This document shows positions 6,719 to 51,919 of a stretch of DNA of 64,000 nt, in pieces. The stretch lies in contig JAQBRD010000026.1 in the NCBI GenBank assembly GCA_028286665.1, positions 7,967 to 71,966 on the forward strand, written 5' to 3'. How positions within the stretch are numbered: the stretch's first letter is position 1; each line of letters begins with the position of its first letter. Source of the stretch: Candidatus Tayloriibacteriota bacterium (GTDB lineage Bacteria; Patescibacteriota; Minisyncoccia; Phycocordibacterales; PALSA-1337). Made by a program: the position numbers and the translations under genes. Under the pieces are notes generated by a model. It was not told the origin of the DNA and did no database searches. It worked only from the letters and a program-made list of their open reading frames with translations.

Positions 6719-8191
6719 ATGGGCTATAAAGACTTCTTTAAGAGCAAACGCATAGCCGTAGTCGGCGTCGGGGAGCATGGTTCGATGCTGCCTGATATTC
6801 GCTTTCTCTTGAAGCTCAAAGCATGCGTATCCATATACGATATCCGAAGCAGGGATAAGCTCGGCGGCGATGAGTCTGGCAGCGTAGCGAAAGAGATCGA
6901 GAATATCTGCATCGCAGCGCAAATCGGCGCACCGGCGTCCTGCCAATTCGGCCTCATCGGACTCATGTCTGATGCTGCTGCTCGGAAAAGTTTCGAGAAT
7001 GAGCTGGCCGAATCGGACCTTATCATCCTCGCTCCGGACATCTCACGAAGTTCAGGTTTCCTGAAACAAGCGATCACCGCTGGCGTTCGCATCGAATATT
7101 CAGACACGCTCCTTTTCAAGCTCATTCCTTCGACGATGCTTGTCGGCGTCATGGGATCCGCTGGAAAATCCGCAGTCTCAGCGATGCTCTACGATATTCT
7201 CCGCCGAGCGGGGAGGAAAACCGTCGATGCTGAAACGGACGAGGTCCGAGAAGAGACGCGAACCGGCGCTGGCGTCTTTCATGTCGACGTCGAATCCGGA
7301 GATGTGCTTTCCGCGCTGAAAAAGATCAAGAAGGACGATATCATCATAGCTCGAATGCCGGAGCATCTCATGGATGAATATCGCATAGCGCGCATAACGC
7401 CGCATGTTGCGGTGCTGACGCATGTTTCCAAATCTCTTGCGGAAATGGGAAAGGAGTTTTTCGGCATCCTTGAATTTCAGACCTACAATTCTTTCATCGT
7501 CGCGAGCGACCTTGCCGTAGACATGCTGAAGAAAAGCGGAGGATTCCAGCCTCGGGCGAAGATCATCCGCACCAGGCCTGCGACGATACCGTCGGATTGG
7601 CATATCAGGATGCCGAATGCGCACGCGCGAGATAATGCCACTCTGGCTATCGAGGCCGCGCTTATTTTCAAGATCGAGCCGGACATCATCCATTTGGCGC
7701 TCGCTGACGTGAAGCAGCTCAAGGGCAGGCTTGAAAAGGTCCGGACCAGCAAGAACGGCGTCGAATTCTACAATGACTCGATGTCTGCGCGCCCCGAAGC
7801 GACGCTTGCCGCCCTGCGCGCACTTGGCGCTACCGGCGAGCGCCGGAGCATCGTCCTCATCATGGGCGGATCATATACCGGAGTTTCGTATGAGGAACTC
7901 ATCAGCCATATTCCGCAATATGTCTCGACTCTCATCCTCCTGCCTGGCAGCGGAACGCTTACCGAGCGGCAGGCTTTCGAAAAGCTCGCTGATGAGGAAC
8001 AGCCTATGCCAGGCAAGACGCATCCGAAGGTTTCATATGTGAAGACTATCGCTGAAGGGATGGCTGTCGCTCAAGCTTCTGCAGGAAAAGGCGACAGGGT
8101 GCTTTTCAGCCCCGCCTTTGATATTGTCGGTTTTGAATCGAAATTGGAGCGCGGCGAAGAATTCATTCGGCTCGTGAAAGGAATACATTAG
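6719..8191 (+). CDS. murD: Mur ligase, most like UDP-N-acetylmuramoylalanine--D-glutamate ligase.
   Basis: N-terminal Rossmann-like IAVVGVGEHG...RFLLKLKACV, P-loop-like VGVMGSAGKSAV, and MurD-like C-terminal YNDSMSARPEATLAAL. A TATAAT box lies upstream (~6704). Confidence 0.65.
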   Translation: MGYKDFFKSKRIAVVGVGEHGSMLPDIRFLLKLKACVSIYDIRSRDKLGGDESGSVAKEIENICIAAQIGAPASCQFGLIGLMSDAAARKSFENELAESDLIILAPDISRSSGFLKQAITAGVRIEYSDTLLFKLIPSTMLVGVMGSAGKSAVSAMLYDILRRAGRKTVDAETDEVREETRTGAGVFHVDVESGDVLSALKKIKKDDIIIARMPEHLMDEYRIARITPHVAVLTHVSKSLAEMGKEFFGILEFQTYNSFIVASDLAVDMLKKSGGFQPRAKIIRTRPATIPSDWHIRMPNAHARDNATLAIEAALIFKIEPDIIHLALADVKQLKGRLEKVRTSKNGVEFYNDSMSARPEATLAALRALGATGERRSIVLIMGGSYTGVSYEELISHIPQYVSTLILLPGSGTLTERQAFEKLADEEQPMPGKTHPKVSYVKTIAEGMAVAQASAGKGDRVLFSPAFDIVGFESKLERGEEFIRLVKGIH

Positions 8192-15314: not shown

Positions 15315-16277
15315 CTACTCGCCGCAGGTGAGGCATGCGATCGAGCCGCTCCAGCTTCGACCGGTATATATCGCATTCATGAGTCCGACGATCGAGAGCG
15401 CGCTATTGGTCGAGATTTTGATCGGGGTATGCTGCCGTACAAGCTCCTGCGCGATCTCGATCGATTCGTTCGTGGCGATCCATCCGCTGCCGCCGGTCTT
15501 CTCGATGAGGGGGATGAGCTTCGTCCTGCGGATCGCCGTATGGTCGACAATCGCATCCGCGATCGAAGTTTCGCCGCCGCCGTCAGCTGTCACGATGTCT
15601 TCATTGAAAGCGTCTGACATCGGGTGGCAGGAGGATGTCTGCACGATATGGACTTCGATCGGCGCGCGAGCTTTGCCGTTCTTGCCGTTGTGCGCGAGGA
15701 AATATTCCGCGAGCGCCTGCGCAGTCGTCCCTGAAGATGCGCCGACGAAGACTGCTCGCAGATCGGGAATTGCCATGAGCTCCTCGGCGAGCGATTCGTA
15801 TCCGATGAGCGCAACGTCGTCATTCGATTGCCGGAGGCCGCGCATTGTCGGATCCTGGGTTCTTGTGAAGAGCGCCTGGAGCGGCCGCTCATGGGAATTC
15901 ACTCGGATATGCTCGCTCTTGAGCGCTTCGAGCTTCGCCCGCTTATGCGGAGCGATCTTCAGTCCGATGAAGATGTCGAGGGTGATGGGTTCTGCCTGAG
16001 CGGCTTCTATATCATTGAGCTGCTTGATATAGAGCGCGGCAGCAAGCGCTGCGTTTCCTGAGGATGAAATGACGAAAGAACGGATGCCGTCGGCGAGGCC
16101 TTTGTCGATCATGATCGAAATGGATCGGCCCTTGTGCGAGCCGAGCGGGTGGAGATCCTCTCGTTTCAGATACAGGTGATCGATGCCGGTTATCGCTGCT
16201 GCAAGTTCCGGATATGATTCGTGCGGCGTGACTGGCGCGGTCTGTGTTTTGGGCGCGACGGCGGTTGCTGATGTCAT
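15315..16277 (-). CDS. Fold-type II PLP-dependent enzyme (threonine synthase / threonine dehydratase-like).
   Basis: PLP-lysine motif region HLYLKREDLHPLGSHKGRS, glycine-rich loop VGASSGTTAQALA, and overall length typical of the PALP family. Confidence 0.6.
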   Translation of the reverse strand: MTSATAVAPKTQTAPVTPHESYPELAAAITGIDHLYLKREDLHPLGSHKGRSISIMIDKGLADGIRSFVISSSGNAALAAALYIKQLNDIEAAQAEPITLDIFIGLKIAPHKRAKLEALKSEHIRVNSHERPLQALFTRTQDPTMRGLRQSNDDVALIGYESLAEELMAIPDLRAVFVGASSGTTAQALAEYFLAHNGKNGKARAPIEVHIVQTSSCHPMSDAFNEDIVTADGGGETSIADAIVDHTAIRRTKLIPLIEKTGGSGWIATNESIEIAQELVRQHTPIKISTNSALSIVGLMNAIYTGRSWSGSIACLTCGE

Positions 16278-16326: not shown

Positions 16327-16497
16327 ATGAAAAAAACCTGCATCTGTCCCGAATGTAAGAACCAGATCGACCTGTCCCGCTATCCAGACATCAAGGAAGG
16401 CCTCGTCATCGAATGCAATTTCTGCGGCATAACGCTCGAAGTCACCGACATCGTCGGAGAGAACATCGTCACGGAGATCGTGGACGAAGGGAAGTAG
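16327..16497 (+). CDS. Unannotated 56-aa zinc-ribbon protein resembling LysW amino-group carrier proteins. It is below the 60-aa cutoff of the ORF track.
   Basis: MKKTCICPECKNQIDLSRYPDIKEGLVIECNFCGITLEVTDIVGENIVTEIVDEGK. This follows the LysW template CPECGAELRLENPELGELVVCEDCGAELEV... with an acidic tail. ATG and stop were checked in the sequence. Confidence 0.5.
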   Translation: MKKTCICPECKNQIDLSRYPDIKEGLVIECNFCGITLEVTDIVGENIVTEIVDEGK

Positions 16498-16501
16498 CCT
16501 C

Positions 16502-17302
16502 TCACTTTATTACGAAATGAGTTCCAAGCCGTTTCCTCAGGCGTTCGGCTTTGTTTTTGTTGCGCTCCAGCTTCAATTTGTAGCGATGCTTTTGCTGAAC
16601 CGCGCTCTCGATCATTCGCATAAGCTCCGCATCGTCTTTGGCGTTTCGATATGCATCATCGATGAGCTTGAAGAGCTTCTCGTCTATCTTCGTATTCAAT
16701 ATATAGTCGCCGAACAGCGTGATGTTATCGAGGTGCGAGAATGTCGGTACCGATTCGAAATGAATCTGGTACGTGTCACTCTTGTGCTTCCGTGCGAAAT
16801 TCTTATCGAAACGCGAAGGATACCCGATAGTATGGCATACGATCATACGGCGCTTTTTTGTATATGCGATGAAGTCCTCTTCGCTCTTCTTTCGATCGGG
16901 CATGCGTATCCAGAAATTATGCGATCCATAAAAATATATCCCGGCGCCTTCCGTATCCCGCTCAAGGATGAACATGTAATGTTTCCAGAGCTTATCCATC
17001 TGCGAAGCGGAACTCACTTCGAATGCCATGCTCTCGCCCTCTTCGATCTCTGGACTGATGTCGTGCTGGGTGAGCATTTCCGACATGGCTTTTTTCCATT
17101 CGCTGCTGATCGAGAAAATGCCTTTTGATCGTATTGCAATGTCAGCAGCCTCGAGCTGCTTGAGAGCCTTATACAGGCCTGAAACGCTCAGGTAAAAGCC
17201 GTGCTCTTTCAGCTTCCGGCTGATTTCGGATGCGGTATTCGGTTTCAAGAGCAGGATTTTGACGATCCTGTCAGCTGTTTTCTGCGTGCTTATTTGCATC
17301 AT
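16502..17302 (-). CDS. Winged-helix DNA-binding protein with a C-terminal domain of unknown function.
   Basis: N-terminal wHTH-like ADRIVKILLLKPNTASEISRKLKEHGFYLSVSGLYKALKQLEAADIA, and a basic coiled-coil tail. Divergent from the substrate-binding protein gene. Confidence 0.4.
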   Translation of the reverse strand: MMQISTQKTADRIVKILLLKPNTASEISRKLKEHGFYLSVSGLYKALKQLEAADIAIRSKGIFSISSEWKKAMSEMLTQHDISPEIEEGESMAFEVSSASQMDKLWKHYMFILERDTEGAGIYFYGSHNFWIRMPDRKKSEEDFIAYTKKRRMIVCHTIGYPSRFDKNFARKHKSDTYQIHFESVPTFSHLDNITLFGDYILNTKIDEKLFKLIDDAYRNAKDDAELMRMIESAVQQKHRYKLKLERNKNKAERLRKRLGTHFVIK

Positions 17303-17337
17303 TCACTGTATGTTATTTTTCTACTAAAAGTAGAATT

Positions 17338-18549
17338 TTGACTAATTATGATATAAAAAATAGCTTTGTGCAAGTTTCCTCCGGTACGATGCTGGATATG
17401 AATAAATGCAATTATCGAAGCGCCGTTATCGCAAGTTCAATAGTGCTGTTCGTCATTCTTATTGCCGTTCTCAGCAAACACCCTTCATCAGGGTCATCGC
17501 GTGGAAAAGAGCCGATACGGATAGGCCTCGCAATCGGACTTACCGGGTATGCTGCCAATTGGGGCTCGGGAGAGCAGAAGGCAGTCGAGCTTGCGCTTGA
17601 TGAATATTCGGCAAAATTGGATGTGCCCATCAAGCTTGTCGTTGAGGATACGAAATCCGATGGCATCGGCACCGTCAACGCTATCCAGAAGCTCGTCGAA
17701 GTCGACCATGTCCAAGCTATCATCGGACCGACGTGGGGCGACAGTTTCCAGGGCGGTCTTCCGATTGCGGAGAAAGCCAAGGTGGCCATGATTTCGCCGA
17801 GCGCAGCCATGGAGGCGATAGAGAATAGGGGCAGCTTCGGTTATTTCTTTTCGACATGGTGGCCTCAGCAGCAGGAAGTCAGTGCGCTCGCATCACGTAT
17901 CACAAAGGATCATGCGAAGACCGTCTACATCATCCATGATCAGGATTCCTTCAATTTAAAATTCAGCGACATGTTCCAGGACGCGATCGCATCCGCCGAT
18001 CCAGGCATAAGAATTCAGCGCGTCACTGCGCCTATCAGCGCGAATGATTTCAGAACATATGTCACAAAGATAAAGGATGCTAAGCCGGATGCGATATTTG
18101 CGCTGTTCCAGGATACCGGATCAGTGGGGTCATTGATGAAACAACTCAAAGAGCAGGGAGTCGTGGCGAAAGTGTATTCGTCGACATCTGCTCAGAACGA
18201 AGGGAATCTGAAAAAGTTCCCAGGATATTTCGATGGCCTGCGATATTCATATCCTTCCTATGAAGACGATTCGAGATATGCGGCTCTCAAGAGGAAATTT
18301 ATTGAAAAATACGGATCCGGAGCTGATGAAGGTCCCGCATTCGTGAATGCATACAATGCTTCGGTCGTTCTCCTCGAGTCGATCAAGGCAGGGGCAAGGA
18401 CAGGCGAAGAAATTCGAAAGGCACTTGGAAAGATACGCATGCCAGGCGTTGGCGTAGAAGAACTATCATTCGATATGAACAATCAGATTGGAAATGTCAC
18501 TTACCTCATAAAGACTGTGAAGGGAAATTCCTTCGTACGGCTGGACTAA
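17338..18549 (+). CDS. ABC-transporter substrate-binding protein, LivJ/LivK (Peripla_BP_6) type, membrane/lipid-anchored.
   Basis: IRIGLAIGLTGYAANWGSGEQKAVELALDEY...VEDTKSDGIGTVNAIQKLVEVDHVQAIIGPTWGDSFQG is a typical branched-chain amino acid binding-protein fold. N-terminal hydrophobic anchor present. No cognate permease or ATPase genes are adjacent. Confidence 0.7.
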   Translation: MTNYDIKNSFVQVSSGTMLDMNKCNYRSAVIASSIVLFVILIAVLSKHPSSGSSRGKEPIRIGLAIGLTGYAANWGSGEQKAVELALDEYSAKLDVPIKLVVEDTKSDGIGTVNAIQKLVEVDHVQAIIGPTWGDSFQGGLPIAEKAKVAMISPSAAMEAIENRGSFGYFFSTWWPQQQEVSALASRITKDHAKTVYIIHDQDSFNLKFSDMFQDAIASADPGIRIQRVTAPISANDFRTYVTKIKDAKPDAIFALFQDTGSVGSLMKQLKEQGVVAKVYSSTSAQNEGNLKKFPGYFDGLRYSYPSYEDDSRYAALKRKFIEKYGSGADEGPAFVNAYNASVVLLESIKAGARTGEEIRKALGKIRMPGVGVEELSFDMNNQIGNVTYLIKTVKGNSFVRLD

Positions 18550-18552
18550 ATC

Positions 18553-20031
18553 TTATTTTAATTTGGCTACGGTCTCCTCGATCATCCCTCTGAATCCGTG
18601 CGAGCCGAGGAAGACGATGACGTTTCCTGCGCCTGCATCTTCTCCGGATCGAGCTTCCGCGATGACTTTTGAGACGAGAGCGGCATCGTCTTCGATATAG
18701 ATGGCTTCTTTTTTCGCATGTGAAATATGGTCGGCGAGCTCCTGGCCTTCGAGGGGCTGATCCTTGGGATCGGTCTTCGTCTCATCTATCTTGAGCTTGG
18801 TGAGACGGGGAATGATGACAAGGTCCGCGTCCCTGAAAGCGCCGCCGTTTCTGTCATCGGTGCTCTTGTCGTATGCTCCGATCGAGCTCTTCTGGCGGCC
18901 GCCGATATTCGGCTCGTAGATCGCGATGATCTTCTTGCCGTAGACTTCTCGAATGCTTTCGAGTCCTGATGCGGCTTTTTCCGGAGTCGGCGCGTGCGTA
19001 TCGATGACAGTGATGCCGCTGTTCTGCGCAGCATCACCCGCCTGGCCGTCGAGCCGCCGTTCGAGTCTCCGCTTGATGCCTTTGAATGCAGCGAGAGCCG
19101 CGATGATCTTGTCGGCAGAAATTCCGATATGGTGAGCCATGGCGAATACTCCGGCGATATTCTCGACGTTGTAGCGTCCGAGCATCGGGGAGGCGACATG
19201 ATAGGCCTGTCCGGCGTGATCGATATCAAATGCGATGCCGGCTTTCGTATGCTGCACGCTGCGATATCGGTAGTCGACTTCTTCATTCATGCCATACGTG
19301 ACGACTTTCGCTGCCGCTGCGCCGATGATCTTGTTCACGCCCTCGTCATCCGCGCATGCGACGATCACGCCGCTTGCCGGAATGCCTGCGACGAGCTTTT
19401 CGAATGTCTTGAAATAATCTGCCTCGGTCGGGTAGAGGTCGGCATGATCCCATGAGACGGATGTGAGCAGGAGGTGCGTCGGATCGTAATATGCGAATTT
19501 CGGAAGCTTGTCGTAGATCGCGGTCTGATATTCGTCGCCTTCGACGACGCTCCATTTCGAAATGCTCGCATCGATGAGTGCGCCGGTCGGATGCGACATC
19601 GAGAGGCCTCCGGTGAAATAGCTCGGATTCATTCCTGCCTCGATGAGCACGAATGAGAGGAGGGCCGAAGTAGTCGTCTTGCCCCAAGTTCCGGCGGTGA
19701 CGATCGAATTCGGCCGGATGAAGTATTTCTGGAGGATTTGAGCGTACGGATAAAAGGGAATGCCGTGCTCTTTCGCATAGACGACCTCAGGATTCGAAAG
19801 GCTCGTGCCTGATCCGCCTACCATCACGACGTCTGGCTTGCCGATCTTTTCGGGGTGCCAGCCGGCATAGTACTCGATGCCGGCTTCGGCAAGATTCGTC
19901 GAAACGGGAGGGTAGAAGCCCTTGTCGCTGCCGGTCACTTTCCAGCCTGCTTGGTGAAAAGCGACGGCAAGCGCACCAGTGCCGACGCCGCAGATGCCGA
20001 CGATGTGGATGTGTTTCGGTTTATTTTCCAT
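18553..20031 (-). CDS. mpl: Mur ligase of the MurC/Mpl family, most like the peptidoglycan-recycling tripeptide ligase Mpl.
   Basis: N-terminal HIHIVGICGVGTGALAVAFHQAGWKVTGSDKGFYPPVSTNLAEAGIEYYAGW matches the Mpl N-terminus (GSDANVYPPMSTLLE...). Mur-ligase central and C-terminal domains present. Confidence 0.7.
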   Translation of the reverse strand: MENKPKHIHIVGICGVGTGALAVAFHQAGWKVTGSDKGFYPPVSTNLAEAGIEYYAGWHPEKIGKPDVVMVGGSGTSLSNPEVVYAKEHGIPFYPYAQILQKYFIRPNSIVTAGTWGKTTTSALLSFVLIEAGMNPSYFTGGLSMSHPTGALIDASISKWSVVEGDEYQTAIYDKLPKFAYYDPTHLLLTSVSWDHADLYPTEADYFKTFEKLVAGIPASGVIVACADDEGVNKIIGAAAAKVVTYGMNEEVDYRYRSVQHTKAGIAFDIDHAGQAYHVASPMLGRYNVENIAGVFAMAHHIGISADKIIAALAAFKGIKRRLERRLDGQAGDAAQNSGITVIDTHAPTPEKAASGLESIREVYGKKIIAIYEPNIGGRQKSSIGAYDKSTDDRNGGAFRDADLVIIPRLTKLKIDETKTDPKDQPLEGQELADHISHAKKEAIYIEDDAALVSKVIAEARSGEDAGAGNVIVFLGSHGFRGMIEETVAKLK

Positions 20032-20692
20032 TGAGGATCATTTTAGCTTTTTCGAGGTCAGTCTGCCACATTTTGCCGTCGAACCATTCGAGACCGGCGA
20101 ACTGAAGCTTGTAGATGTCGCCTGGACGCTGGAGGGAACCGAGATAGATGAAGCGCTTGCCGGATTTCTTCGCATATTCGATCGCGGTGAGCATCATGCC
20201 CATGCCCATGTTTTTCGAAGCGGCAGCGAGATCATAGAAAGGGTAGCTATAGTGGAGCATCGCCGAGTTCTCATAGGCGATGCAGTAGGCGGCGGAAGCG
20301 GAGTTTTCTGCGCCGGTCGAATAGGCGAGGAGCGAATTGAAATTGCCCGCCGCTGCGTCTGTCAGGATTTCCTTGATCTTCACTGCGCTCATGATGCCGG
20401 GGCCGAATTTCGCTTCATAGAAATCCTTGGCGAGTTTGCCGAGCGACCAATGATAGTCGGCGAGCGGCAGCGGCTTCGTCGAGAGGGCAATGTTCGCCTC
20501 AGCAGCCTTTTTCAGGATGCGGCGGTTCTCGCTCGAGAGTTCGAATTTCGCGAGGTCGACGCGGACGCTTCGTGTCTGATGCATGACGCCCTTGCCGATG
20601 CGAGTGAAGACATAGCCGCGCTCATACTGCGCAGCGATATTCGCTTCGGAAAAATCCGCTATCGTCGTTTCGTCCCAATGAAGATATTCCAT
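20021..20692 (-). CDS. Aminoacyl-tRNA--protein transferase-like protein (Bpt/Ate1 family, GNAT/FemX fold).
   Basis: ATE_N-like YERGYVFTRIGKGVMHQTRSVRVDLAKFELSSENRRILKK, compared with Bpt GFRRSG...RIPV..F.P.R.QRRI.KR. ATE_C-like MLHYSYPFYD...RFIYLGSLQRPGDIYKLQF, compared with Bpt VYTFFDP...YVYLGYWI...YKLDF. The Cys cluster of canonical Ate/Bpt is absent. The stop overlaps the mpl start by 11 nt. Confidence 0.5.
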   Translation of the reverse strand: MEYLHWDETTIADFSEANIAAQYERGYVFTRIGKGVMHQTRSVRVDLAKFELSSENRRILKKAAEANIALSTKPLPLADYHWSLGKLAKDFYEAKFGPGIMSAVKIKEILTDAAAGNFNSLLAYSTGAENSASAAYCIAYENSAMLHYSYPFYDLAAASKNMGMGMMLTAIEYAKKSGKRFIYLGSLQRPGDIYKLQFAGLEWFDGKMWQTDLEKAKMILNGK

Positions 20693-20731: not shown

Positions 20732-21862
20732 TTAGTGCAGCGAAAGCCAGACGCCGAAGATCACGAAGAAGAGATGCACGATCCAGAAGCGCATGATGGT
20801 CTTCTCTTCGCTCCAGCCGGTGAGCTCGAAGTGATGATGGAGCGGCGCCATCTTGAAGATGCGTCGGCCGAGGACATATCGGCCTGCGACCTGGATGAGC
20901 ACGGTGATCGCTTCGACATAGAAGAGGAAGCCGAGGAAGAAGATCGTGCCGATTTCGCCGATGGCGAGGGCATTGATGGCGAAGAGCGCTCCGATGCCGA
21001 GCGAGCCGACGTCGCCCATCTGGAATCTGGCAGGTTTGATATTGAAATACGTGTAGGCGATGAGCGCGCCGACGACGGTCGCATTGAGGATCGCGATGCG
21101 TCCGAAGCCGTCGAGCCACGAGAGCAGGGTAAGCGCCGAGAATGTCGTGATGAGCATGCCGCCGGCGAGGCCGTCCATGCCGTCGGCGATGTTGACCGCG
21201 TTCGCAGTGAACATGACGATGAAAATAATGATTGGGATGATCAGCCATCCGACGAAGACGTCGCCGACGAAAGGAAAGTATATATAGTGCCATGCGTCGC
21301 CGAGCTTGCCATAGATCCACCATGCTGACATGCTCCCGGCGAGGAATTGGAGTAGGAGCTTCTCGTGCACGTAGACGCCTTTGCCCGGATGCGAGCCGAG
21401 CCAGAGCGAAGCGCGCTTGAATACTGCCCATGGGAGCGTGATCGTATACCAGAATCTCATTTTGAATTCCTGATGCACGCGGATGAGCGTCATCGTCTGC
21501 GCGAGCGAACGGCTGCGGCGCTTCCGGCCGAAGATATTGAGGATGTCGTCGATGCCTCCGAGAAGCGCCGCGAAGACCATCACGCCGATCGGAACCCAGG
21601 TGAGCTTGCGATCCCAGTTGAAGAGCATCGTGACGACTGCGACCGTGACGATGATGAGCAATCCTCCCATGACCGGCGTATTGACCTTGCTCCGGCGGCT
21701 TTCCATCGTCAGCGTCGCATCATAGTCGTTGCGGCGGGTGACATTGAGCTTGCGGAGGAAGTCGATGAGGATCGGCGCCCAAAGGAAGGCGACGATGCAG
21801 GAAATGACGGCAAAGCCCAGAATATACGAGAGGCTGCCGATGTCGGAGGGAGTTATGAACAT
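20732..21862 (-). CDS. mraY: Phospho-N-acetylmuramoyl-pentapeptide transferase.
   Basis: MraY/WecA motifs NTPVMGGLLII, NAVNIADGMDGLAGG and MGDVGSLGIGAL. Ten or more TM helices. Confidence 0.85.
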   Translation of the reverse strand: MFITPSDIGSLSYILGFAVISCIVAFLWAPILIDFLRKLNVTRRNDYDATLTMESRRSKVNTPVMGGLLIIVTVAVVTMLFNWDRKLTWVPIGVMVFAALLGGIDDILNIFGRKRRSRSLAQTMTLIRVHQEFKMRFWYTITLPWAVFKRASLWLGSHPGKGVYVHEKLLLQFLAGSMSAWWIYGKLGDAWHYIYFPFVGDVFVGWLIIPIIIFIVMFTANAVNIADGMDGLAGGMLITTFSALTLLSWLDGFGRIAILNATVVGALIAYTYFNIKPARFQMGDVGSLGIGALFAINALAIGEIGTIFFLGFLFYVEAITVLIQVAGRYVLGRRIFKMAPLHHHFELTGWSEEKTIMRFWIVHLFFVIFGVWLSLH

Positions 21863-21950: not shown

Positions 21951-22053
21951 ACAACACGATACACATTTGTTGGGCAAAACCCGGATTCCGCTGCGTGTGC
22001 AGCGAAGTCTCTTTGACAAAATAAAAAACAATACGGCACTACGGTTACATCGG

Positions 22054-23283
22054 ATGAAAAAACTGCTATTCCTATCGGCCCTGGTCTTCCAGGGGTTATT
22101 CACTTCAATCACAACCCAGGCTCAGTTGCAGCCGCTTCTCGTGCTCTCCGGTTCCGCGGAAATCGTTCAGAAAGACGAACGGATATCCATCGGTACCAAT
22201 CGCACGATCAAGGTGGTCTTCAGTTGCGGCACGCCTACCAACGCCTACGGAGTCCTGCTCGTGAGTCATCTTTCGGACGGATATCCTTGGAATGACACTT
22301 GGCTTCGTCTTGGCAATCAGGACTTCGCTGCTGGAAGCAATACGAATACGTATGTCGTCCCGACGAACATCATCGGGGCGGACCGCTTCAGCATTCAGCT
22401 GATGCAGGCGCTTCCTGATCACAGCGTCGTTCCGTTCGCAGAAAGCGAAATGTTCTTCATCGAAGAGGCTCCTGCTATCTCCGTTTCTCTCACCGAAGAA
22501 AATCGCGTGTGGAAAAGGGGAGAGACGAAGGAGATCAGCTTCATATGGGAAAATCTGAAAGTCGGCGATCCGTACTGGATCGTCATGGGGTTCGCTCAGA
22601 ATCACGGATGGCAGGGCGAAGCATACGGCTTCACTCTGCATCAGGGAATTTTTGATGCGGAGTCGGGATCGAAAACCATATCGGTAATCGTTCCGACGAA
22701 CATGGCAATCGGAGAGCACTTCGTGAGAGTCTCGTCGCCAGAAGCTTATAACTTCCTGACCGAGACTGTCTACGGAGCGCCGACGAATATTCCCACCGCT
22801 TCGAGAATCTCAGGCATCAATGTGGGTCCAATGAGTTCAGAAAAGCCCAGTGAGGTATCGCTAGACCTCGAAGGCATTCCTGGGCATACGTATCAAGTGC
22901 AGATGACTACGAACTTCGTGGATTGGACAACTTTCACGAATTCGCCGGTCGGCAGCCCTTCGGGGTACTTCTACTTCGATCGCTGGATCACGAATGACGT
23001 GAACAGCTTCTATCGGCTGAAGGAGATTCCGTATCTGAACGTCAGCTTCACCGTTTCTCCTGAACATCCTCATGTGAATGAGCCGGTCACTTGGACTGCG
23101 GTGGTATCAGGCGGCGATGGTCCGTATTACTACGGATGGACAGCCGTCGATGGGCTTACCGGAGAGGGATCGACCTTCACGGACACCTACGGAAATTCTT
23201 CGGCTGCCAGAGTGAAGCTAAATGTGAAATCGGGAGATCAGCAGGTCACGATTTCTTGCACAGTGCCTATCATCGAAAATTAG
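22054..23283 (+). CDS. Secreted protein with a C-terminal PKD-like domain.
   Basis: Signal peptide MKKLLFLSALVFQGLFTSITTQA (start set at this Met; the track ORF begins 29 codons earlier). PKD motif VSGGDGPYYYGWTAVDGLTGEGSTF. Confidence 0.5.
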   Translation: MKKLLFLSALVFQGLFTSITTQAQLQPLLVLSGSAEIVQKDERISIGTNRTIKVVFSCGTPTNAYGVLLVSHLSDGYPWNDTWLRLGNQDFAAGSNTNTYVVPTNIIGADRFSIQLMQALPDHSVVPFAESEMFFIEEAPAISVSLTEENRVWKRGETKEISFIWENLKVGDPYWIVMGFAQNHGWQGEAYGFTLHQGIFDAESGSKTISVIVPTNMAIGEHFVRVSSPEAYNFLTETVYGAPTNIPTASRISGINVGPMSSEKPSEVSLDLEGIPGHTYQVQMTTNFVDWTTFTNSPVGSPSGYFYFDRWITNDVNSFYRLKEIPYLNVSFTVSPEHPHVNEPVTWTAVVSGGDGPYYYGWTAVDGLTGEGSTFTDTYGNSSAARVKLNVKSGDQQVTISCTVPIIEN

Positions 23284-23362: not shown

Positions 23363-24172
23363 TTATACAAACCAATTCAGTCGGCGGATCTCCGTGATCG
23401 ATTTCTTCGCGCGAGTGAATGTGAAATTCTCCTCGCCGGTTTTTCCAGCTTCGACCCATCGCTGCTCGAGGAGCGCCTTTTTCGGATCGGTGATATTGAT
23501 GACGCCCTGGCGGATGCCGTGCCCGTAGACGCCGTCGGTCGGCCATGCGATCGAGTGCGTGTAGTGGATCGCCGTCGGTATGAAATTCTGATACTCGATC
23601 TGGTGAATGAGAATGATGTGATCTCGCGCTCGATCTTCTTCGGATGCGTCAGGGTGCTTGATCATCGAAATGAAATCTCCCGGCTGAATGTCAGCGAGCG
23701 TGACGACGGAGCTGTTCTTGTCCGAAGCGAATGTCTGCACATTCGTATTCTCGGTCGGGCGGATCCTGCAGACAATTTTGCCGATGATGCCTTTCTTGCA
23801 GTAAGGAAATGAGAGGTGCCGATCGATCTGGCCTTTGCTGCGGCCGATGCTTTCCGCATTGAGCACGTAATAGACAAGTCCGGAGCAGTCGATGCCGAGC
23901 CGATGATCCACCATGAATTCTTTGAGAGCAGCGCCGGTGAACGAGCTCGGGACGATCTTCTCTTTGAGCGCGGTGATTTCCGCTTCCTCATATATATCGT
24001 GCGGACTGCCTTTGCCTTTGAGTGCGCGAAGTCCTGCGCGGAGTCCGGCCCGGCGGTTATTGAAATAGGGAACGGAGCAGATGCCGGAAAGCGTCGTGCC
24101 GCTGCCGATATGGAAATTACTGTATTGCTCGATGACTGCAAGCGCCCGGTCTGTGAGGAGTTTTGTATTCAT
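23363..24172 (-). CDS. Cytoplasmic NlpC/P60 (CHAP-like) papain-fold amidase/peptidase.
   Basis: Catalytic Cys context GIDCSGLVYYVL, downstream His region (ARDHIILIHQIE), and no signal peptide. The 19-nt gap after the ATP-grasp gene suggests an operon. Confidence 0.55.
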   Translation of the reverse strand: MNTKLLTDRALAVIEQYSNFHIGSGTTLSGICSVPYFNNRRAGLRAGLRALKGKGSPHDIYEEAEITALKEKIVPSSFTGAALKEFMVDHRLGIDCSGLVYYVLNAESIGRSKGQIDRHLSFPYCKKGIIGKIVCRIRPTENTNVQTFASDKNSSVVTLADIQPGDFISMIKHPDASEEDRARDHIILIHQIEYQNFIPTAIHYTHSIAWPTDGVYGHGIRQGVINITDPKKALLEQRWVEAGKTGEENFTFTRAKKSITEIRRLNWFV

Positions 24173-24191: not shown

Positions 24192-25487
24192 TTATTTCGT
24201 AATTATCTCGACGATCTTCTTGCCGCGCAAATTGAATTTGGTATGCGTCTCCATGATGCCGCGGAGATTCTGGATGCGGATAAGGTCGGCATTCGGCTTC
24301 GTATTCGGATACTGGATCGTGATGAAGCCGGCTTCGTCGAGTTCCTTCGCTGCCTTGTCGCTCACTGATTTCTTCGAAGCAGTGACTCGCTGGATGATCT
24401 GCGCGCCATCATACACCGGGATGAGCGGCTGCACCGTGCCGCCGCCCTCGAGCGATGCGAGATGCGCTTCGAACGTCGTCACTCCCTCGAGGCCAGCGAC
24501 TCGGAGTCCGAGCTGGAGCTGGGATTCGAAGGTCGTGGAAGCCGGCTGGCGTGCGTTGATCTCGATGAGGCGGATCTCGTCGCGCTCCTCGTCATATATG
24601 AGATCGATGCCGAAGAGTCCGCGCCAGCCGGCGGCCTTCATCTTCTCTGCGGTCTTCTGCGCGATCTCATGGATCGTCGCCACGTTCTTTTCCGTGAGGA
24701 TGCTGTGCGTCAGGCTCCAGTCATTGCCGATCGTGCTCCATGGATTGTCGGTGAAGGGAAGCGAGCCGGTGATCTGATAGCTGATGTTCGCTTCGCCGGC
24801 GAGCAGTGGGAGCACGTTCGACGTGAATGTGGGGCCTTTCACGAATACCGAGACTCGCGCATCGCGGTCGGGGAATTTCTGCTGGATTTCCTGGAGCTGC
24901 TTTTCGTTCGTGACGAGGATGGTCCCGTCGCCGGTGTGGCTGTGCGCCCACTGAATGATGAAAGGGATGAATTCGTCTTTCACCGCATCGAGCTCGCCGG
25001 ATGTATTCCGATATGTCGGCTTGATATGCTTCGTCTGGAGGATCTGATGAGCGGGCAGATATGAAACGAGCTCGCCGAGGAATTCGACCTGCGTGATCTT
25101 GTTCTCGATCTTTTCAGCGAGCGCCGCCGGCGGATTCACGAGCTGCCAGCCATGCTTCTTCGCGAGCGCTTCGATGCGAGGCGCATTCTTGAAGACGACG
25201 AGCTTCGCGCCTTCGTCCTTTGTGCTTTTCGTGATCGAGGCGGCCACTTCGGGAATCGAAAGGAGTTCGTAGGTGCCGAGAGTTTCAGTTTCGATTCCGG
25301 CTGCTTCGCCTGCAGCTACAGGACGATCGATGAGCCAGACGTTGTCAGGATATTTCGCCTGGATCTTTTCGGCATACGGCGTGCGGTTCGTGATGATGAA
25401 ATAATTGCACAAGGCATTGGCTCCCGGCTCCATGCCGAGCGCCCGCTCGATATCCCTCGCTACATATATGACAGGAGACAGTTTCAT
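24192..25487 (-). CDS. ATP-grasp superfamily ligase with a ~120-aa N-terminal pre-domain.
   Basis: ATP-grasp C-terminal signature GLFGIDLIYDEERDEIRLIEINARQ, central glycine-rich ATP loop (HSHTGDGTILV), and pre-ATP-grasp WQLVNPPAALAEKIENKITQVEFL. Confidence 0.65.
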   Translation of the reverse strand: MKLSPVIYVARDIERALGMEPGANALCNYFIITNRTPYAEKIQAKYPDNVWLIDRPVAAGEAAGIETETLGTYELLSIPEVAASITKSTKDEGAKLVVFKNAPRIEALAKKHGWQLVNPPAALAEKIENKITQVEFLGELVSYLPAHQILQTKHIKPTYRNTSGELDAVKDEFIPFIIQWAHSHTGDGTILVTNEKQLQEIQQKFPDRDARVSVFVKGPTFTSNVLPLLAGEANISYQITGSLPFTDNPWSTIGNDWSLTHSILTEKNVATIHEIAQKTAEKMKAAGWRGLFGIDLIYDEERDEIRLIEINARQPASTTFESQLQLGLRVAGLEGVTTFEAHLASLEGGGTVQPLIPVYDGAQIIQRVTASKKSVSDKAAKELDEAGFITIQYPNTKPNADLIRIQNLRGIMETHTKFNLRGKKIVEIITK

Positions 25488-44307: not shown

Positions 44308-45285
44308 ATGCGTTTTCGAACCTTTATTTGCATAGTGTTGGTGATCGTCGTGCTCGCATTCGCAGCAGTCGCTGCTTTCGCAGTGCTCTCATCTTCGCCG
44401 AGTGATTTTCCGATAGGCGCTACCGTCAATATTCCGAGGAATGCGACGATTTCCGAAATCGCAACTTCGCTCAAAGAACGCTCATTCATCCGATCGGAGG
44501 ATGCCTTCAAGGTTGCCGCGCTCATGCTCGGAGGCAGCAACGGGCTCCTGTCGGGCGACTATCTCTTCGATCGTCCGACGAATGTCTGGAAGCTCGTCGA
44601 ACGCATCACGAAAGGCGATCAGGGGATCGCTCGGGTGAAAGTGACATTTCCTGAAGGCATCACGGTGAAGGAGATGGGGAATATCGTCGCGTCGCAGGTG
44701 AGCGGGTTCGATGCTGCGGGATTCGTCGCGCGCGCATCGACATCGGAAGGATACCTCTTTCCTGATACGTATTATTTCTTCAGCAATGCCAAGCCGCTGG
44801 ACGTCGTTCGAGTCATCGCCGCCGAATTCGATCAGAAATATGCGACGTTGCTGAGCGATCCTGCCATCGTCGCCGGGACGATGTATGGCAAGACGAAACG
44901 CGAGATCGTCACCATGGCTTCGATCCTCGAAGACGAAGTGAAGAGCGCCCAGGACCGCTCGATCGTTTCAGGGATTCTCTGGAAGCGACTGGCAAAGGGC
45001 ATGCCGCTTCAGGTCGATGCTCCGTTTGGCTATATTCTCGGCAAATCCACCGAGGATCTGACGCTCGATGATCTCAAGACGAATTCTCCATACAATACCT
45101 ATTTGAATAAAGGCTTGCCGCCGACGCCGATCAACAACCCCGGCCTCGAAGCGCTCCGCGCGACGATGATGCCGACATCCACGCCGTACTGGTTCTATCT
45201 TTCTGATAAGAAGGGCGCGATCCATTATGCGAAGACATATGCGGAGCATCTCGCGAATAAAGAAAACTATCTCAACGGTAAATAG
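44308..45285 (+). CDS. mltG: Endolytic murein transglycosylase MltG (YceG family).
   Basis: N-terminal TM. YceG motifs EGYLFPDTYYF, REIVTMASILEDEVKSAQDRSIVSGILWKRLAKGMPLQVDAPFGY and GLPPTPINNPGLEALRA. Confidence 0.8.
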   Translation: MRFRTFICIVLVIVVLAFAAVAAFAVLSSSPSDFPIGATVNIPRNATISEIATSLKERSFIRSEDAFKVAALMLGGSNGLLSGDYLFDRPTNVWKLVERITKGDQGIARVKVTFPEGITVKEMGNIVASQVSGFDAAGFVARASTSEGYLFPDTYYFFSNAKPLDVVRVIAAEFDQKYATLLSDPAIVAGTMYGKTKREIVTMASILEDEVKSAQDRSIVSGILWKRLAKGMPLQVDAPFGYILGKSTEDLTLDDLKTNSPYNTYLNKGLPPTPINNPGLEALRATMMPTSTPYWFYLSDKKGAIHYAKTYAEHLANKENYLNGK

Positions 45286-49999: not shown

Positions 50000-51919
50000 A
50001 TGACACTCCAAGAACTACGCAGCAAATTCCTCGCATATTATGAGAAGAACGGGCATGCGATCATCCCGTCGTCCTCGCTCGTTCCTGAGAATGATCCGAC
50101 AACGCTCTTCACCGGTTCCGGCATGCAGCCGCTCGTTCCATATCTGCTCGGTCAGAAACATCCGCAGGGAACCCGTCTCGTGAATTCGCAGAAGTCCTTC
50201 CGCTCGGGAGACATCGACGATATCGGCGACAATCGGCACACGACATTTTTCGAGATGCTCGGCAACTGGTCGCTCGGCGATTATTTCAAGAAAGAGCAGC
50301 TTCCGCAGGTCTTCCGATTCCTCACTGAGGAAGTCGGCCTCGATCCGAAGCGCCTCTATGTGAGCGCGTTCATCGGCGACGAAGCTAATGGCGTTCCGAA
50401 AGACGCCGAAGCCGAGGCGATCTGGAAAGAGCTTTTCGCTTCGAAGGGAATCGATGCGAAGACTGTCGACATCGGCAGCGAAGCGCGAGGCGCCGAGATC
50501 GGCATGCAGGGCGGACGCATCTTCTTCTATGACGTGAAGAAGAATTGGTGGTCGCGATCCGGCATTCCGGCGAACATGCCTGCCGGCGAACCGGGAGGCC
50601 CTGACTCGGAGCTTTTCTATGAGTTTGATTTCATCGAGCACAATCCGAAATTCGGCGCGCATTGCCATCCGAACTGCGATTGCGGACGCTACATCGAATT
50701 CGGCAACTCTGTTTTCATGCAGTACAAGAAGAACGAAGCCGGCGGATTCGAATTGCTTCCGCAGTTAAATGTCGACTTCGGCGGCGGACTCGAGCGATTC
50801 GCCATGGCTGCGAACAACACTGCAGACATCTTCGGCCTCGACGTTTTCGCCGATCTCATCTCGACCCTCGAAACGAAGAGCGGCAAGAAATACAAGGACG
50901 CAGATGGAAAGGAAAATGAATATACCGCTGCATTCCGCGTAGTCGTTGACCACATCCGCGCATCCGTCTTCCTCATCGGCGACGGCGTCATTCCTTCGAA
51001 CAATGAGCGCGGCTATTTCGTCCGACGCTTGCTCCGCCGCGCCATCCGCTATTGGGACAAGCTCGGCATCAACGAGGGCGGCATCGCATCGACGGTCGAC
51101 GCGCTTCTCGAGAGCTACAAGGATGCATATCCTGAAACATACGCTCGCCGAACTGAAATCAAAGCTGAGATCGAAACCGAAGAGCAGAAATTCCGCACGA
51201 CACTCCGACATGGCTTGAAGGAGATCGAGAAGATCTTCGTTGATCTGCAATCGCAGAAGAAAGACGTGATTTCAGGCATCGATGCAGCGACGCTCTACCA
51301 GTCATACGGCTTTCCTGTTGAACTGACGCAGGAACTCGCGAAAGAAAAGGGAGTCAAGATTGATATGGACGGCTTCCATGCTGAAATGAAAAAGCATCAG
51401 GATCTTTCTCGCGCCGGTTCCGAAAAGAAATTCAAAGGCGGCCTTGCAGACACGAGCGACATGTCCCTCCGCTACCATACTGCCACGCACCTCCTCAATG
51501 CAGCGCTCCGCCAAGTCCTCGGCGATCATGTCGGGCAGAAGGGCAGCAACATCACGCCTGAACGACTTCGTTTCGATTTCTCGCATCCTGCGAAGATGAC
51601 CGACGAAGAAAAGAAGAAGGTCGAAGCCCTCGTTAACGGCGCGATCGAAGCGGCGTTTCCCGTTTCATTCAGAGAAATGCCGAAGGAAGAAGCAGAGAAG
51701 CTCGGCGCCATCCATGCATTCGGAGAGAAGTACGGCGACGTCGTGAAGGTCTACACCGTCGGCGACGAAGCGAAGCCGTTCAGCCGAGAATTCTGCGGAG
51801 GTCCGCATGTCTCGAATACGAAAGAACTCGCTGGTCCGGAAGGCAAGGCGCGATTCGTCATTCAGAAAGAAGAAGCGTCATCTCAAGGCATCCGACGCAT
51901 CAAAGCTGTGCTTGCATAA
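50000..51919 (+). CDS. alaS: Alanine--tRNA ligase, short form lacking the C-terminal C-Ala domain.
   Basis: N-terminal FLAYYEKNGHAIIPSSSLVPENDPTTLFTGSGMQPLVPYLLG, editing-domain HTATHLLNAALRQVLGDHVGQKGS and CGGPHV. The ORF ends at 639 aa, whereas bacterial AlaRS is usually ~870 aa. Confidence 0.85.
   Translation: MTLQELRSKFLAYYEKNGHAIIPSSSLVPENDPTTLFTGSGMQPLVPYLLGQKHPQGTRLVNSQKSFRSGDIDDIGDNRHTTFFEMLGNWSLGDYFKKEQLPQVFRFLTEEVGLDPKRLYVSAFIGDEANGVPKDAEAEAIWKELFASKGIDAKTVDIGSEARGAEIGMQGGRIFFYDVKKNWWSRSGIPANMPAGEPGGPDSELFYEFDFIEHNPKFGAHCHPNCDCGRYIEFGNSVFMQYKKNEAGGFELLPQLNVDFGGGLERFAMAANNTADIFGLDVFADLISTLETKSGKKYKDADGKENEYTAAFRVVVDHIRASVFLIGDGVIPSNNERGYFVRRLLRRAIRYWDKLGINEGGIASTVDALLESYKDAYPETYARRTEIKAEIETEEQKFRTTLRHGLKEIEKIFVDLQSQKKDVISGIDAATLYQSYGFPVELTQELAKEKGVKIDMDGFHAEMKKHQDLSRAGSEKKFKGGLADTSDMSLRYHTATHLLNAALRQVLGDHVGQKGSNITPERLRFDFSHPAKMTDEEKKKVEALVNGAIEAAFPVSFREMPKEEAEKLGAIHAFGEKYGDVVKVYTVGDEAKPFSREFCGGPHVSNTKELAGPEGKARFVIQKEEASSQGIRRIKAVLA

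Follow-up and report, generated by a model that had tools for sequence, protein, structure and literature searches.

The 223-aa product of a gene lying between mraY and a Mur ligase gene in the window (the whole stretch of 64,000 nucleotides analyzed here) is homologous in sequence profile and fold to the ATE/Bpt aminoacyl-tRNA transferases, and its relatives are co-located with mur genes in three deep subgroups of the ultra-small CPR bacteria and recurrently fused to MurC. On sequence comparison, they form a Patescibacteria-specific, Cys-less branch of ATE/Bpt (hereafter ATE-like). We consider it reasonably likely, with a probability of about 0.6, that this branch has been recruited to cytoplasmic peptidoglycan-precursor synthesis in physical coupling with MurC, in which case a charged tRNA would probably be used for building peptidoglycan and not for marking proteins for degradation.

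A conserved gene between mraY and a MurC-type ligase gene

The features of the window on which the analysis draws are as follows.

6719..8191, plus strand: MurD-like ligase, 490 aa (TIGR01087 murD 119.8 bits, under cutoff; synteny)
15315..16277, minus strand: PALP, PLP-dependent threonine-synthase-like enzyme at the cluster edge (Pfam PALP 98 bits; NCBIfam threonine-synthase-like; synteny)
16327..16497, plus strand: LysW-like zinc-ribbon protein, 56 aa, paired with the PALP gene (PF21344 Zn_ribbon_LysW 33.3 bits against a 27-bit cutoff)
18553..20031, minus strand: MurC-type UDP-MurNAc amino-acid ligase, 492 aa (Pfam Mur_ligase N, M and C domains; TIGR01082 murC 235 bits against 219 for mpl, both under cutoff)
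20021..20692, minus strand: ATE-like gene, Cys-less ATE/Bpt-like aminoacyl-tRNA transferase homologue, 223 aa, ATG start
20108..20113, minus strand: codons of Y194-K195, putative catalytic Tyr-Lys pair (alignment to klAte1 Y303-K304 and FemX F304-K305)
20507..20536, minus strand: SSENRRILKK, residues 53-62, predicted basic helix and counterpart of the tRNA-binding alpha3 of Ate1 (model and alignment)
20732..21862, minus strand: MraY (phospho-MurNAc-pentapeptide transferase), 376 aa, immediately upstream (Pfam Glycos_transf_4; TIGR00445 169.8 bits)
23363..24172, minus strand: P269, cytoplasmic NlpC/P60-like protein conserved beside MraY (weak NlpC_P60 match; synteny)
24192..25487, minus strand: PRK06524-like ATP-grasp enzyme, 431 aa, first gene of the conserved cluster

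An earlier note on this DNA had described the 223-aa reading frame at 20021-20692, and it lies exactly there, on the minus strand, which the note had not given; both peptide segments quoted from it, ATE_N-like and ATE_C-like, occur in the translation. The overlap of its stop with the start of the downstream ligase is 11 nt (20021-20031), as had been claimed, and mraY is indeed upstream on the same strand, at a spacing of 39 nt from the mraY stop to the ATE-like start instead of the 40 nt reported. The downstream gene does encode a Mur ligase, yet the more specific name mpl finds no specific support: the murC profile outscores the mpl profile for the adjoining ligase in all three subgroups (A, B, and C), which points to a MurC-type enzyme, and the JGI annotation reads Mpl. 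The ATE-like protein is matched by at least 1678 database proteins at E<=1e-3, its nearest relatives are 57-68% identical to it from end to end, and the alignment of 30 group A members has 66 invariant columns; this conservation far exceeds what a chance ORF could show, and 20021..20692 is a real gene. No tRNA gene was found in the window.

Remote homology to the ATE/Bpt transferases

The Pfam ATE_C model matched the window protein with an E value of 4e-4 and 21.3 bits, under the 25-bit cutoff, and likewise matched 28 of the 30 group A members, mostly under the same cutoff. The NCBIfam arginyltransferase models gave an E value of 3e-11 and at best 43.1 bits over residues 41-213, which does not reach the curated cutoff of 267 bits, and hhalign against a Bpt alignment returned 97.6% probability (E 3.7e-12, residues 37-213). 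The generic GNAT model PF13480 was found in 16/30 group A members. Neither the single protein nor the family profile found a meaningful match among PDB sequences, and fold comparison alone worked, aligning ATE1 over 211 of the 223 residues. Profile and fold searches, the former put forward in the earlier note as a test that could refute its idea, assigned the protein to ATE/Bpt within the aminoacyl-tRNA-dependent GNAT transferases and to no unrelated family. Judged from these alignments, the homology is real but remote.

The family itself is diverse, with only 25-35% identity between subgroups, and the metagenome scan was run with the group C alignment alone, the mixed group B and C alignment being too divergent. 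Public annotations name its members "arginyltransferase" or N-end rule aminoacyl transferase. A literature search found no paper on the family, and the sole match that mentioned Parcubacteria dealt with a cyclodipeptide synthase.

In sequence, the ATE-like proteins stand closest to Bpt (leucyl-tRNA-protein transferase; NCBIfam PRK01305; Pfam PF04376 ATE_N and PF04377 ATE_C). The two are of similar size and consist of one GNAT domain with a small N-terminal subdomain; both have the Y-K pair and the basic helix, and in both the donor pocket is uncharged. Bpt differs in its ATE_N signal, its four Cys, its CxxCxxC loop, and its GFRRS motif, and also in its genomic context, which is aat instead of mur genes. 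Eukaryotic ATE1 (PDB 8TZV, 7WFX, and 7TIF) shares only 14% sequence identity with the ATE-like protein, which has neither the Zn/Fe-S site nor the C-terminal extension and carries Ala for Glu277; ATE1 also belongs to other organisms and another pathway context. The FemX/FemABX/MurM enzymes (PF02388) are not sequence relatives (0/30 members match FemAB), and they consist of two GNAT domains with the acceptor site between them, whereas the ATE-like protein has one; fusion to MurC is not characteristic of Fem genes, unlike the ATE-like ones.

The synthase domain of MprF (DUF2156) and the L/F-transferase Aat (PF03588) align over ~160-170 residues only, with no DUF2156 or Aat Pfam signal in the ATE-like protein, and they act on a lipid hydroxyl and on a protein N-terminal Arg/Lys, respectively. 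An MprF-like enzyme would aminoacylate a hydroxyl or lipid acceptor, such as a membrane lipid or a polyprenyl-linked intermediate, and so tune envelope charge. We regard this role as highly improbable: the ATE-like protein is soluble and has no membrane domain, the MprF flippase and tandem-GNAT domains are not present, ATE1 is closer over the whole length, and the constant partner is the soluble MurC.

Retained catalytic residues and loss of the metal site

The Y194-K195 pair is invariant in all 30 group A members, is kept in groups B and C, and aligns with the Y-K of Bpt. A catalytic role has been described for the corresponding pairs, Y303-K304 in klAte1 and F304-K305 in FemX (PMC9351520), and K195 matches FemX K305, since it aligns with the Bpt/Ate1 Lys that was equated with that residue in the same work. 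The SSENRRILKK segment aligns with the S/TRxQR+ helix of Bpt, residues 54-65 are helical in the structure model of the window protein, and the basic positions are strongly conserved (R57/R58 invariant and K61/K62 at least 93% among the 30 group A members); a basic patch, K112-K123, has been described in Ate1 (PMC9351520).

The absence of the Cys cluster, already asserted in the earlier note, extends well beyond the window protein, whose only Cys is C137. No ATE_N Pfam signal was detected in any of the 30 group A members, against 76-82 bits for two Bpt controls, and the aligned sequences of groups A, B, and C lack every one of the four metal-binding Cys and have the Cys loop deleted (compare C23, C26, C95, and C96 of klAte1 and CPYL...CxxCxxC of Bpt). 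The CxxCxxC set of Bpt occurs in none of ~100 full-length representatives, three of which have one isolated CxxC. The GFRRS position reads GYVFTR in group A, GFLPxR in group B, and GFLPYSG in group C. The alignments show a family that has lost the metal site, with the putative catalytic Tyr-Lys pair and the predicted tRNA-binding helix retained.

The retained helix and the tight coupling and fusion with MurC could also be explained by a non-catalytic or regulatory role, in which the protein, as a subunit bound to (aminoacyl-)tRNA, would link the activity of MurC to the supply of amino acids. However, neither the Tyr-Lys pair nor many of the pocket residues vary despite the divergence between subgroups, as would be seen in an active enzyme, and we give the regulatory role very little credence.

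In the donor pocket, the position of the acidic Glu277 of ATE1 is occupied by Ala, which makes Arg an unlikely donor; since the pocket is uncharged and hydrophobic, a small or non-polar amino acid of the Ala/Gly/Leu type is the most likely one. On the acceptor side, R31 is kept in groups A and B and missing in group C, and by alignment it may or may not be the counterpart of the acidic-pocket Arg of klAte1 (R80).

Gene neighborhoods and fusions with MurC

The mur neighborhood, whose conservation the earlier note had proposed to check, is kept across ~170 loci of the three deep CPR subgroups, and the constant partner of the ATE-like gene is MurC and not MraY, which is the upstream neighbor across group A loci. 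In group C, no mur gene was found nearby in 10/32 loci. In ~40% of group A loci the spacer between the ATE-like gene and murC is variable and holds unrelated inserted ORFs, none of which is a recurrent partner. ATE::MurC fusion proteins recur, which strengthens the link to the cell wall. Covalent fusions of MurC with a short or absent linker are likewise found in the known Mur chimeras (MurC-Ddl, MurG-MurC, MurC-MurB, and MurE-MurF), whose partners are not always consecutive enzymes; the survey that describes them, which left out sequences from unidentified species, lists no ATE-like::MurC chimera (PMC10214165).

Several further genes accompany the cluster. P269 is homologous to a 235-aa Microgenomates protein beside MraY (E 2e-17), with a G-x-DCSG motif common to both, and the PRK06524-like ATP-grasp family follows PALP in Microgenomates. 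An identification of the 431-aa ATP-grasp protein as Ddl was rejected, Microgenomates carrying both this enzyme and a canonical Ddl. The pairing of LysW-like and PALP genes is also seen in L002, L087, L088, and L176. The MurD-like gene adjoins PALP in most Parcubacteria loci and is displaced by an insertion in the window. We also considered whether the cluster could encode a second, paralogous murein-like pathway, and rejected this, since murA/B/E/F/G/J are single and scattered in Parcubacteria and the Microgenomates have the gene within their only dcw cluster, a canonical one.

Within 5 kb of the ATE-like gene, no dedicated tRNA was found in group A, and in group C tRNA genes are 5.2-fold enriched within 500 nt. 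The identities of the latter vary (Leu-CAG, Ala-GGC/UGC, Gly-GCC/UCC, Arg, and Thr) and the tRNAs look canonical, so that no donor can be assigned from them.

These neighborhoods bear directly on whether the protein could be a Bpt-like transferase acting on protein N-termini, with an N-degron or regulatory job, perhaps on Mur or division proteins, and an operon merely in common with murC. Such a role would agree with Bpt being the closest sequence family, with the public names, with ClpP in the published Parcubacteria core, and with the group C loci outside a mur context. Against it, the proteins lack the ATE_N metal site and have other residues in place of GFRRS, and the recurrent covalent fusion and adjacency with MurC in three subgroups are hard to square with hitch-hiking. 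The N-degron-type surroundings that the earlier note had named as contrary evidence were not seen, neither aat nor clpS flanking the ATE-like gene in the ~170 loci, whereas canonical bpt adjoins aat or unrelated genes and a control bpt was found beside aat. ClpS and ClpA are also missing from the published core-gene table, which is weak evidence, as MurC, MurD, MraY, and Ddl are not listed there by name either and the table cannot decide presence or absence. Overall, we judge an N-terminal protein transferase to be very unlikely.

Proposed role and acceptor

The earlier note had favored a tRNA-dependent peptidoglycan enzyme over an N-degron enzyme, and the mur context across subgroups and the MurC fusions agree with that choice, which neither of its two refuting conditions overturned. 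Its narrower suggestion, aminoacylation of lipid I/II or stem peptides, fits the data about as well as a role upstream of MurC. In the mechanism that we propose, the basic helix would bind the 3' end of the aminoacyl-tRNA, a free amino group of the precursor would attack the aminoacyl ester with K195 stabilizing the tetrahedral intermediate, and an L-amino acid would be added without ATP. Our tentatively preferred acceptor, which we hold as possible, is on a UDP-MurNAc-peptide or a lipid intermediate, namely the amino group in the side chain of its residue-3 diamino acid; a non-Fem enzyme, docked on MurC as part of a Mur enzyme complex, would then make a FemX-like branch.

Some observations weigh against a peptidoglycan role coupled to MurC. 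The substrates and product of MurC itself have no free amine, so the fusion indicates no particular acceptor. For a natural fusion, AF2 modeling from a 9-sequence alignment (pLDDT 78.6, pTM 0.62) gives no confident inter-domain geometry, and the group C loci without a nearby mur gene do not fit readily. A Fem-type "pentaglycine bridge" protein has been reported in most Parcubacteria (Nelson & Stegen), so that a Fem route may already exist there.

Action before MurC would place the same chemistry earlier: L-Ala (or Gly/Ser) would pass from aminoacyl-tRNA to an alpha-amino group, either that of free D-Glu or that of a scavenged gamma-D-Glu-X peptide, and a MurC/Mpl-type ligase would then join the product to UDP-MurNAc, the fused activities being consecutive steps. 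The ancestral ATE/Bpt acceptor is the alpha-amine of an N-terminal Asp/Glu (PMC9351520), the constant neighbor and fusion partner is a ligase of this type, its Mpl scores come close to its MurC scores, and JGI names it Mpl. Glutamate racemase is next door in group C loci L090, L110, L124, L126, L133, L134, and L168, tRNA-Ala genes directly follow the ATE-like gene in several group C loci, murD is absent from a 20.8-kb Microgenomates dcw stretch, and R31, the possible acidic-pocket Arg, is kept in two subgroups. However, R31 is unconserved in group C, the Parcubacteria cluster has a conserved MurD-like ligase next to it, the partner ligase scores better as MurC than as Mpl throughout, and since known Mur chimeras often pair non-consecutive enzymes, fusion does not imply sequential steps. 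We consider action before MurC unlikely. Its fullest form, a two-step unit of ATE-like protein and MurC in which a charged tRNA supplies a core stem-peptide residue (e.g., L-Ala-D-Glu or L-Ala-gamma-D-Glu-X made with Ala-tRNA and then ligated to UDP-MurNAc), seems distinctly unlikely; if true, the part played by tRNA in CPR murein would reach beyond side-chain branching to the assembly or salvage of the core.

Implications for the CPR cell wall

To our knowledge, peptidoglycan synthesis has no tRNA-dependent step other than those of the Fem-family enzymes, and we know the ATE/Bpt family solely for the modification of protein N-termini in N-degron pathways. More than 2000 database proteins probably carry a misleading name, "arginyltransferase" or "N-end rule aminoacyl transferase". 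With natural fusions at hand and proteins that are small and soluble, the cell-wall hypothesis lends itself to direct testing. If it is true, the ATE-like branch would be a second, independently recruited enzyme family in tRNA-dependent murein synthesis and a new member of the proposed Mur multi-enzyme complex, and it would offer a first biochemical handle on the uncharacterized cell wall of the CPR/Patescibacteria, a large share of bacterial diversity.

The ATE-Like ORF and Its Immediate Neighbors

The peptide segments quoted in the earlier note and the 223-aa ORF carrying them were recovered, with the following arrangement:

20021..20692, minus strand: ATE-like ORF, 223 aa, ATG start
20732..21862, minus strand: divergent MraY (Glycos_transf_4; TIGR00445, 169.8 bits)
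18553..20031, minus strand: Mur ligase with MurC/Mpl-type N-terminal domain (235 bits as MurC, 219 as Mpl)

The upstream mraY lies on the same strand at a gap of 39 nt (40 in that note). The 11-nt overlap with the downstream ligase was also found, but its naming as mpl is not specifically supported: both scores fall under the family cutoffs and that for MurC is the higher, so we name the ligase MurC-type. A consensus scan revealed no convincing terminator between mraY, the ATE-like gene, and murC, the sole minus-strand match in this stretch falling within the ATE-like ORF, and placed a promoter-like site immediately 5' of mraY. At ~0.55, the ORF resembles its mur neighbors in GC content, nearby inserted genes being lower, and an identical protein from a Candidatus Taylorbacteria MAG is present in NCBI.

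Relationship to ATE/Bpt Transferases

When 1.84 billion cluster representatives were searched exhaustively, only 286 clusters matched at E ≤ 1e-3. Public names in the family are "arginyltransferase", "N-end rule aminoacyl transferase C-terminal domain protein", "GNAT family N-acetyltransferase", and "hypothetical". The matches form three subgroups:

Group A: ~220 aa, window ORF included; Parcubacteria including Paceibacterota, Taylorbacteria, and Magasanikbacteria
Group B: ~262 aa; Microgenomates such as Shapirobacteria
Group C: ~250 aa; other Patescibacteria/Parcubacteria-labelled MAGs

Groups A and C align by hhalign at 99.9% with an identity of only ~24%. On the window protein, Pfam detected ATE_C alone and sub-threshold (E 4e-4), while the NCBIfam bacterial arginyltransferase (Bpt) models covered residues 41-213 (E 3e-11), far under their cutoffs. 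For calibration, six canonical Bpt proteins were taken from proteobacterial chromids and plasmids; two of these six, run as controls, scored strongly on both ATE_N and ATE_C. The proposed ATE/Bpt homology was borne out by profile–profile comparison of a 30-member family alignment with a Bpt alignment (97.6% probability, E 3.7e-12, residues 37-213).

Residues were compared against the klAte1 mutational map (PMC9351520), in which the catalytic pair is Tyr303-Lys304 and the FemX counterpart Phe304-Lys305. Y194-K195 of the window protein occupies this position, and the Tyr-Lys pair is invariant throughout the ATE-like family, its distant subgroups, and Bpt. The basic alpha3 helix of Ate1, which binds the tRNA 3' end (PMC9351520), has its counterpart in the SSENRRILKK helix, with R57 and R58 invariant and K61 and K62 conserved to at least 93%. 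These features show an aminoacyl-tRNA transferase apparatus predicted to be intact in the window protein; a non-catalytic, regulatory role seems very improbable. As previously claimed, the Cys cluster of canonical N-end-rule transferases is missing: none of the four Zn/Fe-S cysteines is present in the family alignment, the CxxCxxC loop is deleted, and the window protein holds one cysteine in all. The Bpt Cys set occurs in none of the full-length matches among those listed, and ATE_N was detected in 0 of 30 family members. The GFRRS motif of Bpt/Ate1, holding the Arg that recognizes the acidic N-terminal residue (PMC9351520), is replaced by GYVFTR; judging from the alignment, R31, three residues further on and missing in one subgroup, might substitute for that Arg. 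The Ate1 donor-pocket positions S255/S273/E277/Y289 read as Y148/M166/A170/I-or-V182 in the alignment, giving a presumably uncharged and hydrophobic pocket like that of Leu-specific Bpt, which argues for a small or non-polar donor and against Arg.

Gene Neighborhood across Genomes

The group A context sample comprised 85 loci, among them species representatives of 219 matching GTDB genomes. Wherever the contig extends that far, the order ATP-grasp, NlpC/P60-like P269, mraY, ATE-like gene, murC, small Zn-ribbon gene, and PALP (a PLP-dependent threonine-synthase-like enzyme) is kept, usually with a MurD-like gene on the opposite strand at the end. The ATE-like gene is 5' of murC in 72/72 loci having both, with lineage-specific ORFs lying between them in some loci. 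The order mraY, ATE-like gene, ligase is kept in group A, and a mur context in another order is kept in group B and in most group C loci. In Microgenomates, the homologue lies within a textbook dcw cluster (mraZ-mraW-ftsL-ftsI-murE-ATE-murC-murB-murA-ddl-murF-mraY). Among the 32 group C loci in which the contig extends 1.5 kb or more to either side of the gene, murC is immediately upstream, in reverse order, in 22, and the neighbors are unrelated in 10; murB, murG, murA, or glutamate racemase is often close by. ATE/murC pairs of groups B and C overlap or are at most 30 nt apart in 30/36 cases. As a control, canonical bpt adjoins aat in Acinetobacter and unrelated genes in alphaproteobacteria.

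Lower-GC genes encoding a PKD-domain protein, an HTH protein, and a periplasmic binding protein break up the conserved cluster in the window at 21967-23283 (plus strand) and 16502-18549. The same junctions carry different insertions in other genomes, mostly secreted proteins, and the intergenic sites of the cluster appear to be insertion hot-spots. In a complete 876-kb genome (L002 2413-3503; L014), an RVT_1 reverse transcriptase and a bAvd gene, hallmarks of a diversity-generating retroelement, sit between P269 and mraY, and the MraY homologue is split over two ORFs.

Since murA, murB, murE, murF, murG, and murJ occupy scattered positions in Parcubacteria (PMC4508563 supplement), we take the ATE-like/mur cluster to be part of the primary murein pathway rather than a second one.

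ATE::MurC Fusions

In one locus (L015), the ATE-like and murC frames run together into a 750-aa product. A search with this product retrieved no fewer than nine different proteins, 658-747 aa long, which align over 96-100% of its length and share at most 67% identity with one another. Each holds a complete ATE-like domain with the YK motif, a linker of 0-20 residues, and a complete MurC from KHIHIIGICGV, the MurC initiator Met being lost in several. One fusion cluster was found on contigs from NCBI, JGI, and ENA; the predicted model of a fusion reached pTM 0.62, too low for a confident geometry between the two domains. The fusions are genuine and recurrent. A survey of Mur chimeras reported fusions solely between cell-wall enzymes (MurE-MurF, MurC-Ddl, MurG-MurC, MurC-MurB, MurD-FtsW, and MraY-MurG), many joining non-consecutive steps and most commonly involving MurC (PMC10214165); ATE::MurC is not among its types, the survey having left out unidentified species. 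Neighborhoods and fusions show that the genomic and physical partner of the transferase is the murein precursor machinery.

Accessory and Other Murein Genes

Further genes of the window are as follows:

16327-16497, plus strand: LysW-like zinc-ribbon protein, 56 aa (PF21344, 33.3 bits, above cutoff)
15315-16277, minus strand: threonine-synthase-like PLP enzyme (PALP), divergent to the LysW-like gene
24192-25487, minus strand: PRK06524-like ATP-grasp, 431 aa (also L176 19554-20786)
23363-24172, minus strand: cytoplasmic NlpC/P60-like protein (P269), G-x-DCSG motif (also L087 15663-16370)
6719-8191, plus strand: very divergent MurD-like ligase (TIGR01087, 119.8 bits against a 212-bit cutoff)
44308-45282, plus strand: YceG/MltG-type endolytic transglycosylase
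50000-51916, plus strand: alaS

ATP-grasp, NlpC/P60-like, LysW-like, and PLP genes are kept with mur genes in Parcubacteria and Microgenomates, and an unusual amino acid may be the product or the substrate of this set. The LysW-like/PALP pair, at the cluster edge in both (also L002, L087, L088, and L176), is reminiscent of amino-group-carrier-protein pathways. The ATP-grasp, likewise kept in both superphyla, is not simply Ddl, because canonical Ddl is also present in Microgenomates. The NlpC/P60-like protein, in which no signal peptide was found, directly adjoins mraY in both (BLASTP E 2e-17 between them). The MurD-like ligase had no Pfam Mur_ligase_M match at E ≤ 1e-3, and loci of Magasanikbacteria, Microgenomates, and group C have no such gene close to the cluster. 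The YceG/MltG-type gene fits an organism that builds a murein sacculus.

The MurE of Microgenomates, short at 402 aa (L087 6792-8000, L088 6799-8004), lacks the N-terminal domain (aligning to TIGR01085 positions 74-471), and has EDPR where the DAP-type enzyme has DNPR; the retained Arg hints at a DAP-like residue 3.

tRNA Genes and Proposed Function

In group C, the density of tRNA genes up to 500 nt from the ATE-like gene is 0.32 per kb, against 0.062 per kb at distances above 2 kb in these loci, a 5.2-fold enrichment (Fisher p ~2e-7, uncorrected for shared ancestry). These canonical-looking tRNAs vary (Leu-CAG, Ala-GGC/UGC, Gly-GCC/UCC, Arg-CCU, Thr-GGU) and immediately adjoin the ATE-like gene in loci among L091-L170 (e.g., L105 8753-8835, L126 8733-8817, L108, L122, and L116). 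In group A, tRNA-Ile(GAU) and tRNA-Leu(CAG) recur 6-10 kb downstream.

Transfer chemistry needs a nucleophilic amine, less likely a hydroxyl, MprF-like O-aminoacylation being a very doubtful reading. MurC substrates and product are without such an amine; hence, the acceptor would be a later intermediate or a molecule feeding MurC. The latter case, with D-Glu or a gamma-D-Glu peptide as acceptor, seems unlikely; it matches the ancestral N-terminal-Glu specificity of the ATE/Bpt family, and murI neighbors, adjacent tRNA-Ala genes, and the missing murD of the Microgenomates cluster fit it. We tentatively prefer a later intermediate, with the amino group on the side chain of the diamino acid at residue 3 of a nucleotide or lipid precursor as acceptor. 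This would be FemX-like, and in Microgenomates the ATE-like gene has murE as its other neighbor.

Fem enzymes are known to modify murein in a tRNA-dependent manner, and N-degron enzymes are known to have the ATE/Bpt fold; to our knowledge, no combination of the two has been described. An N-degron role for the present family appears improbable. In the full-text literature, within its incomplete coverage, we found no description of the ATE-like family or of ATE::MurC fusions. With a probability of roughly 60%, the ATE-like protein would be an aminoacyl transferase that draws on charged tRNA in the synthesis of peptidoglycan precursors.
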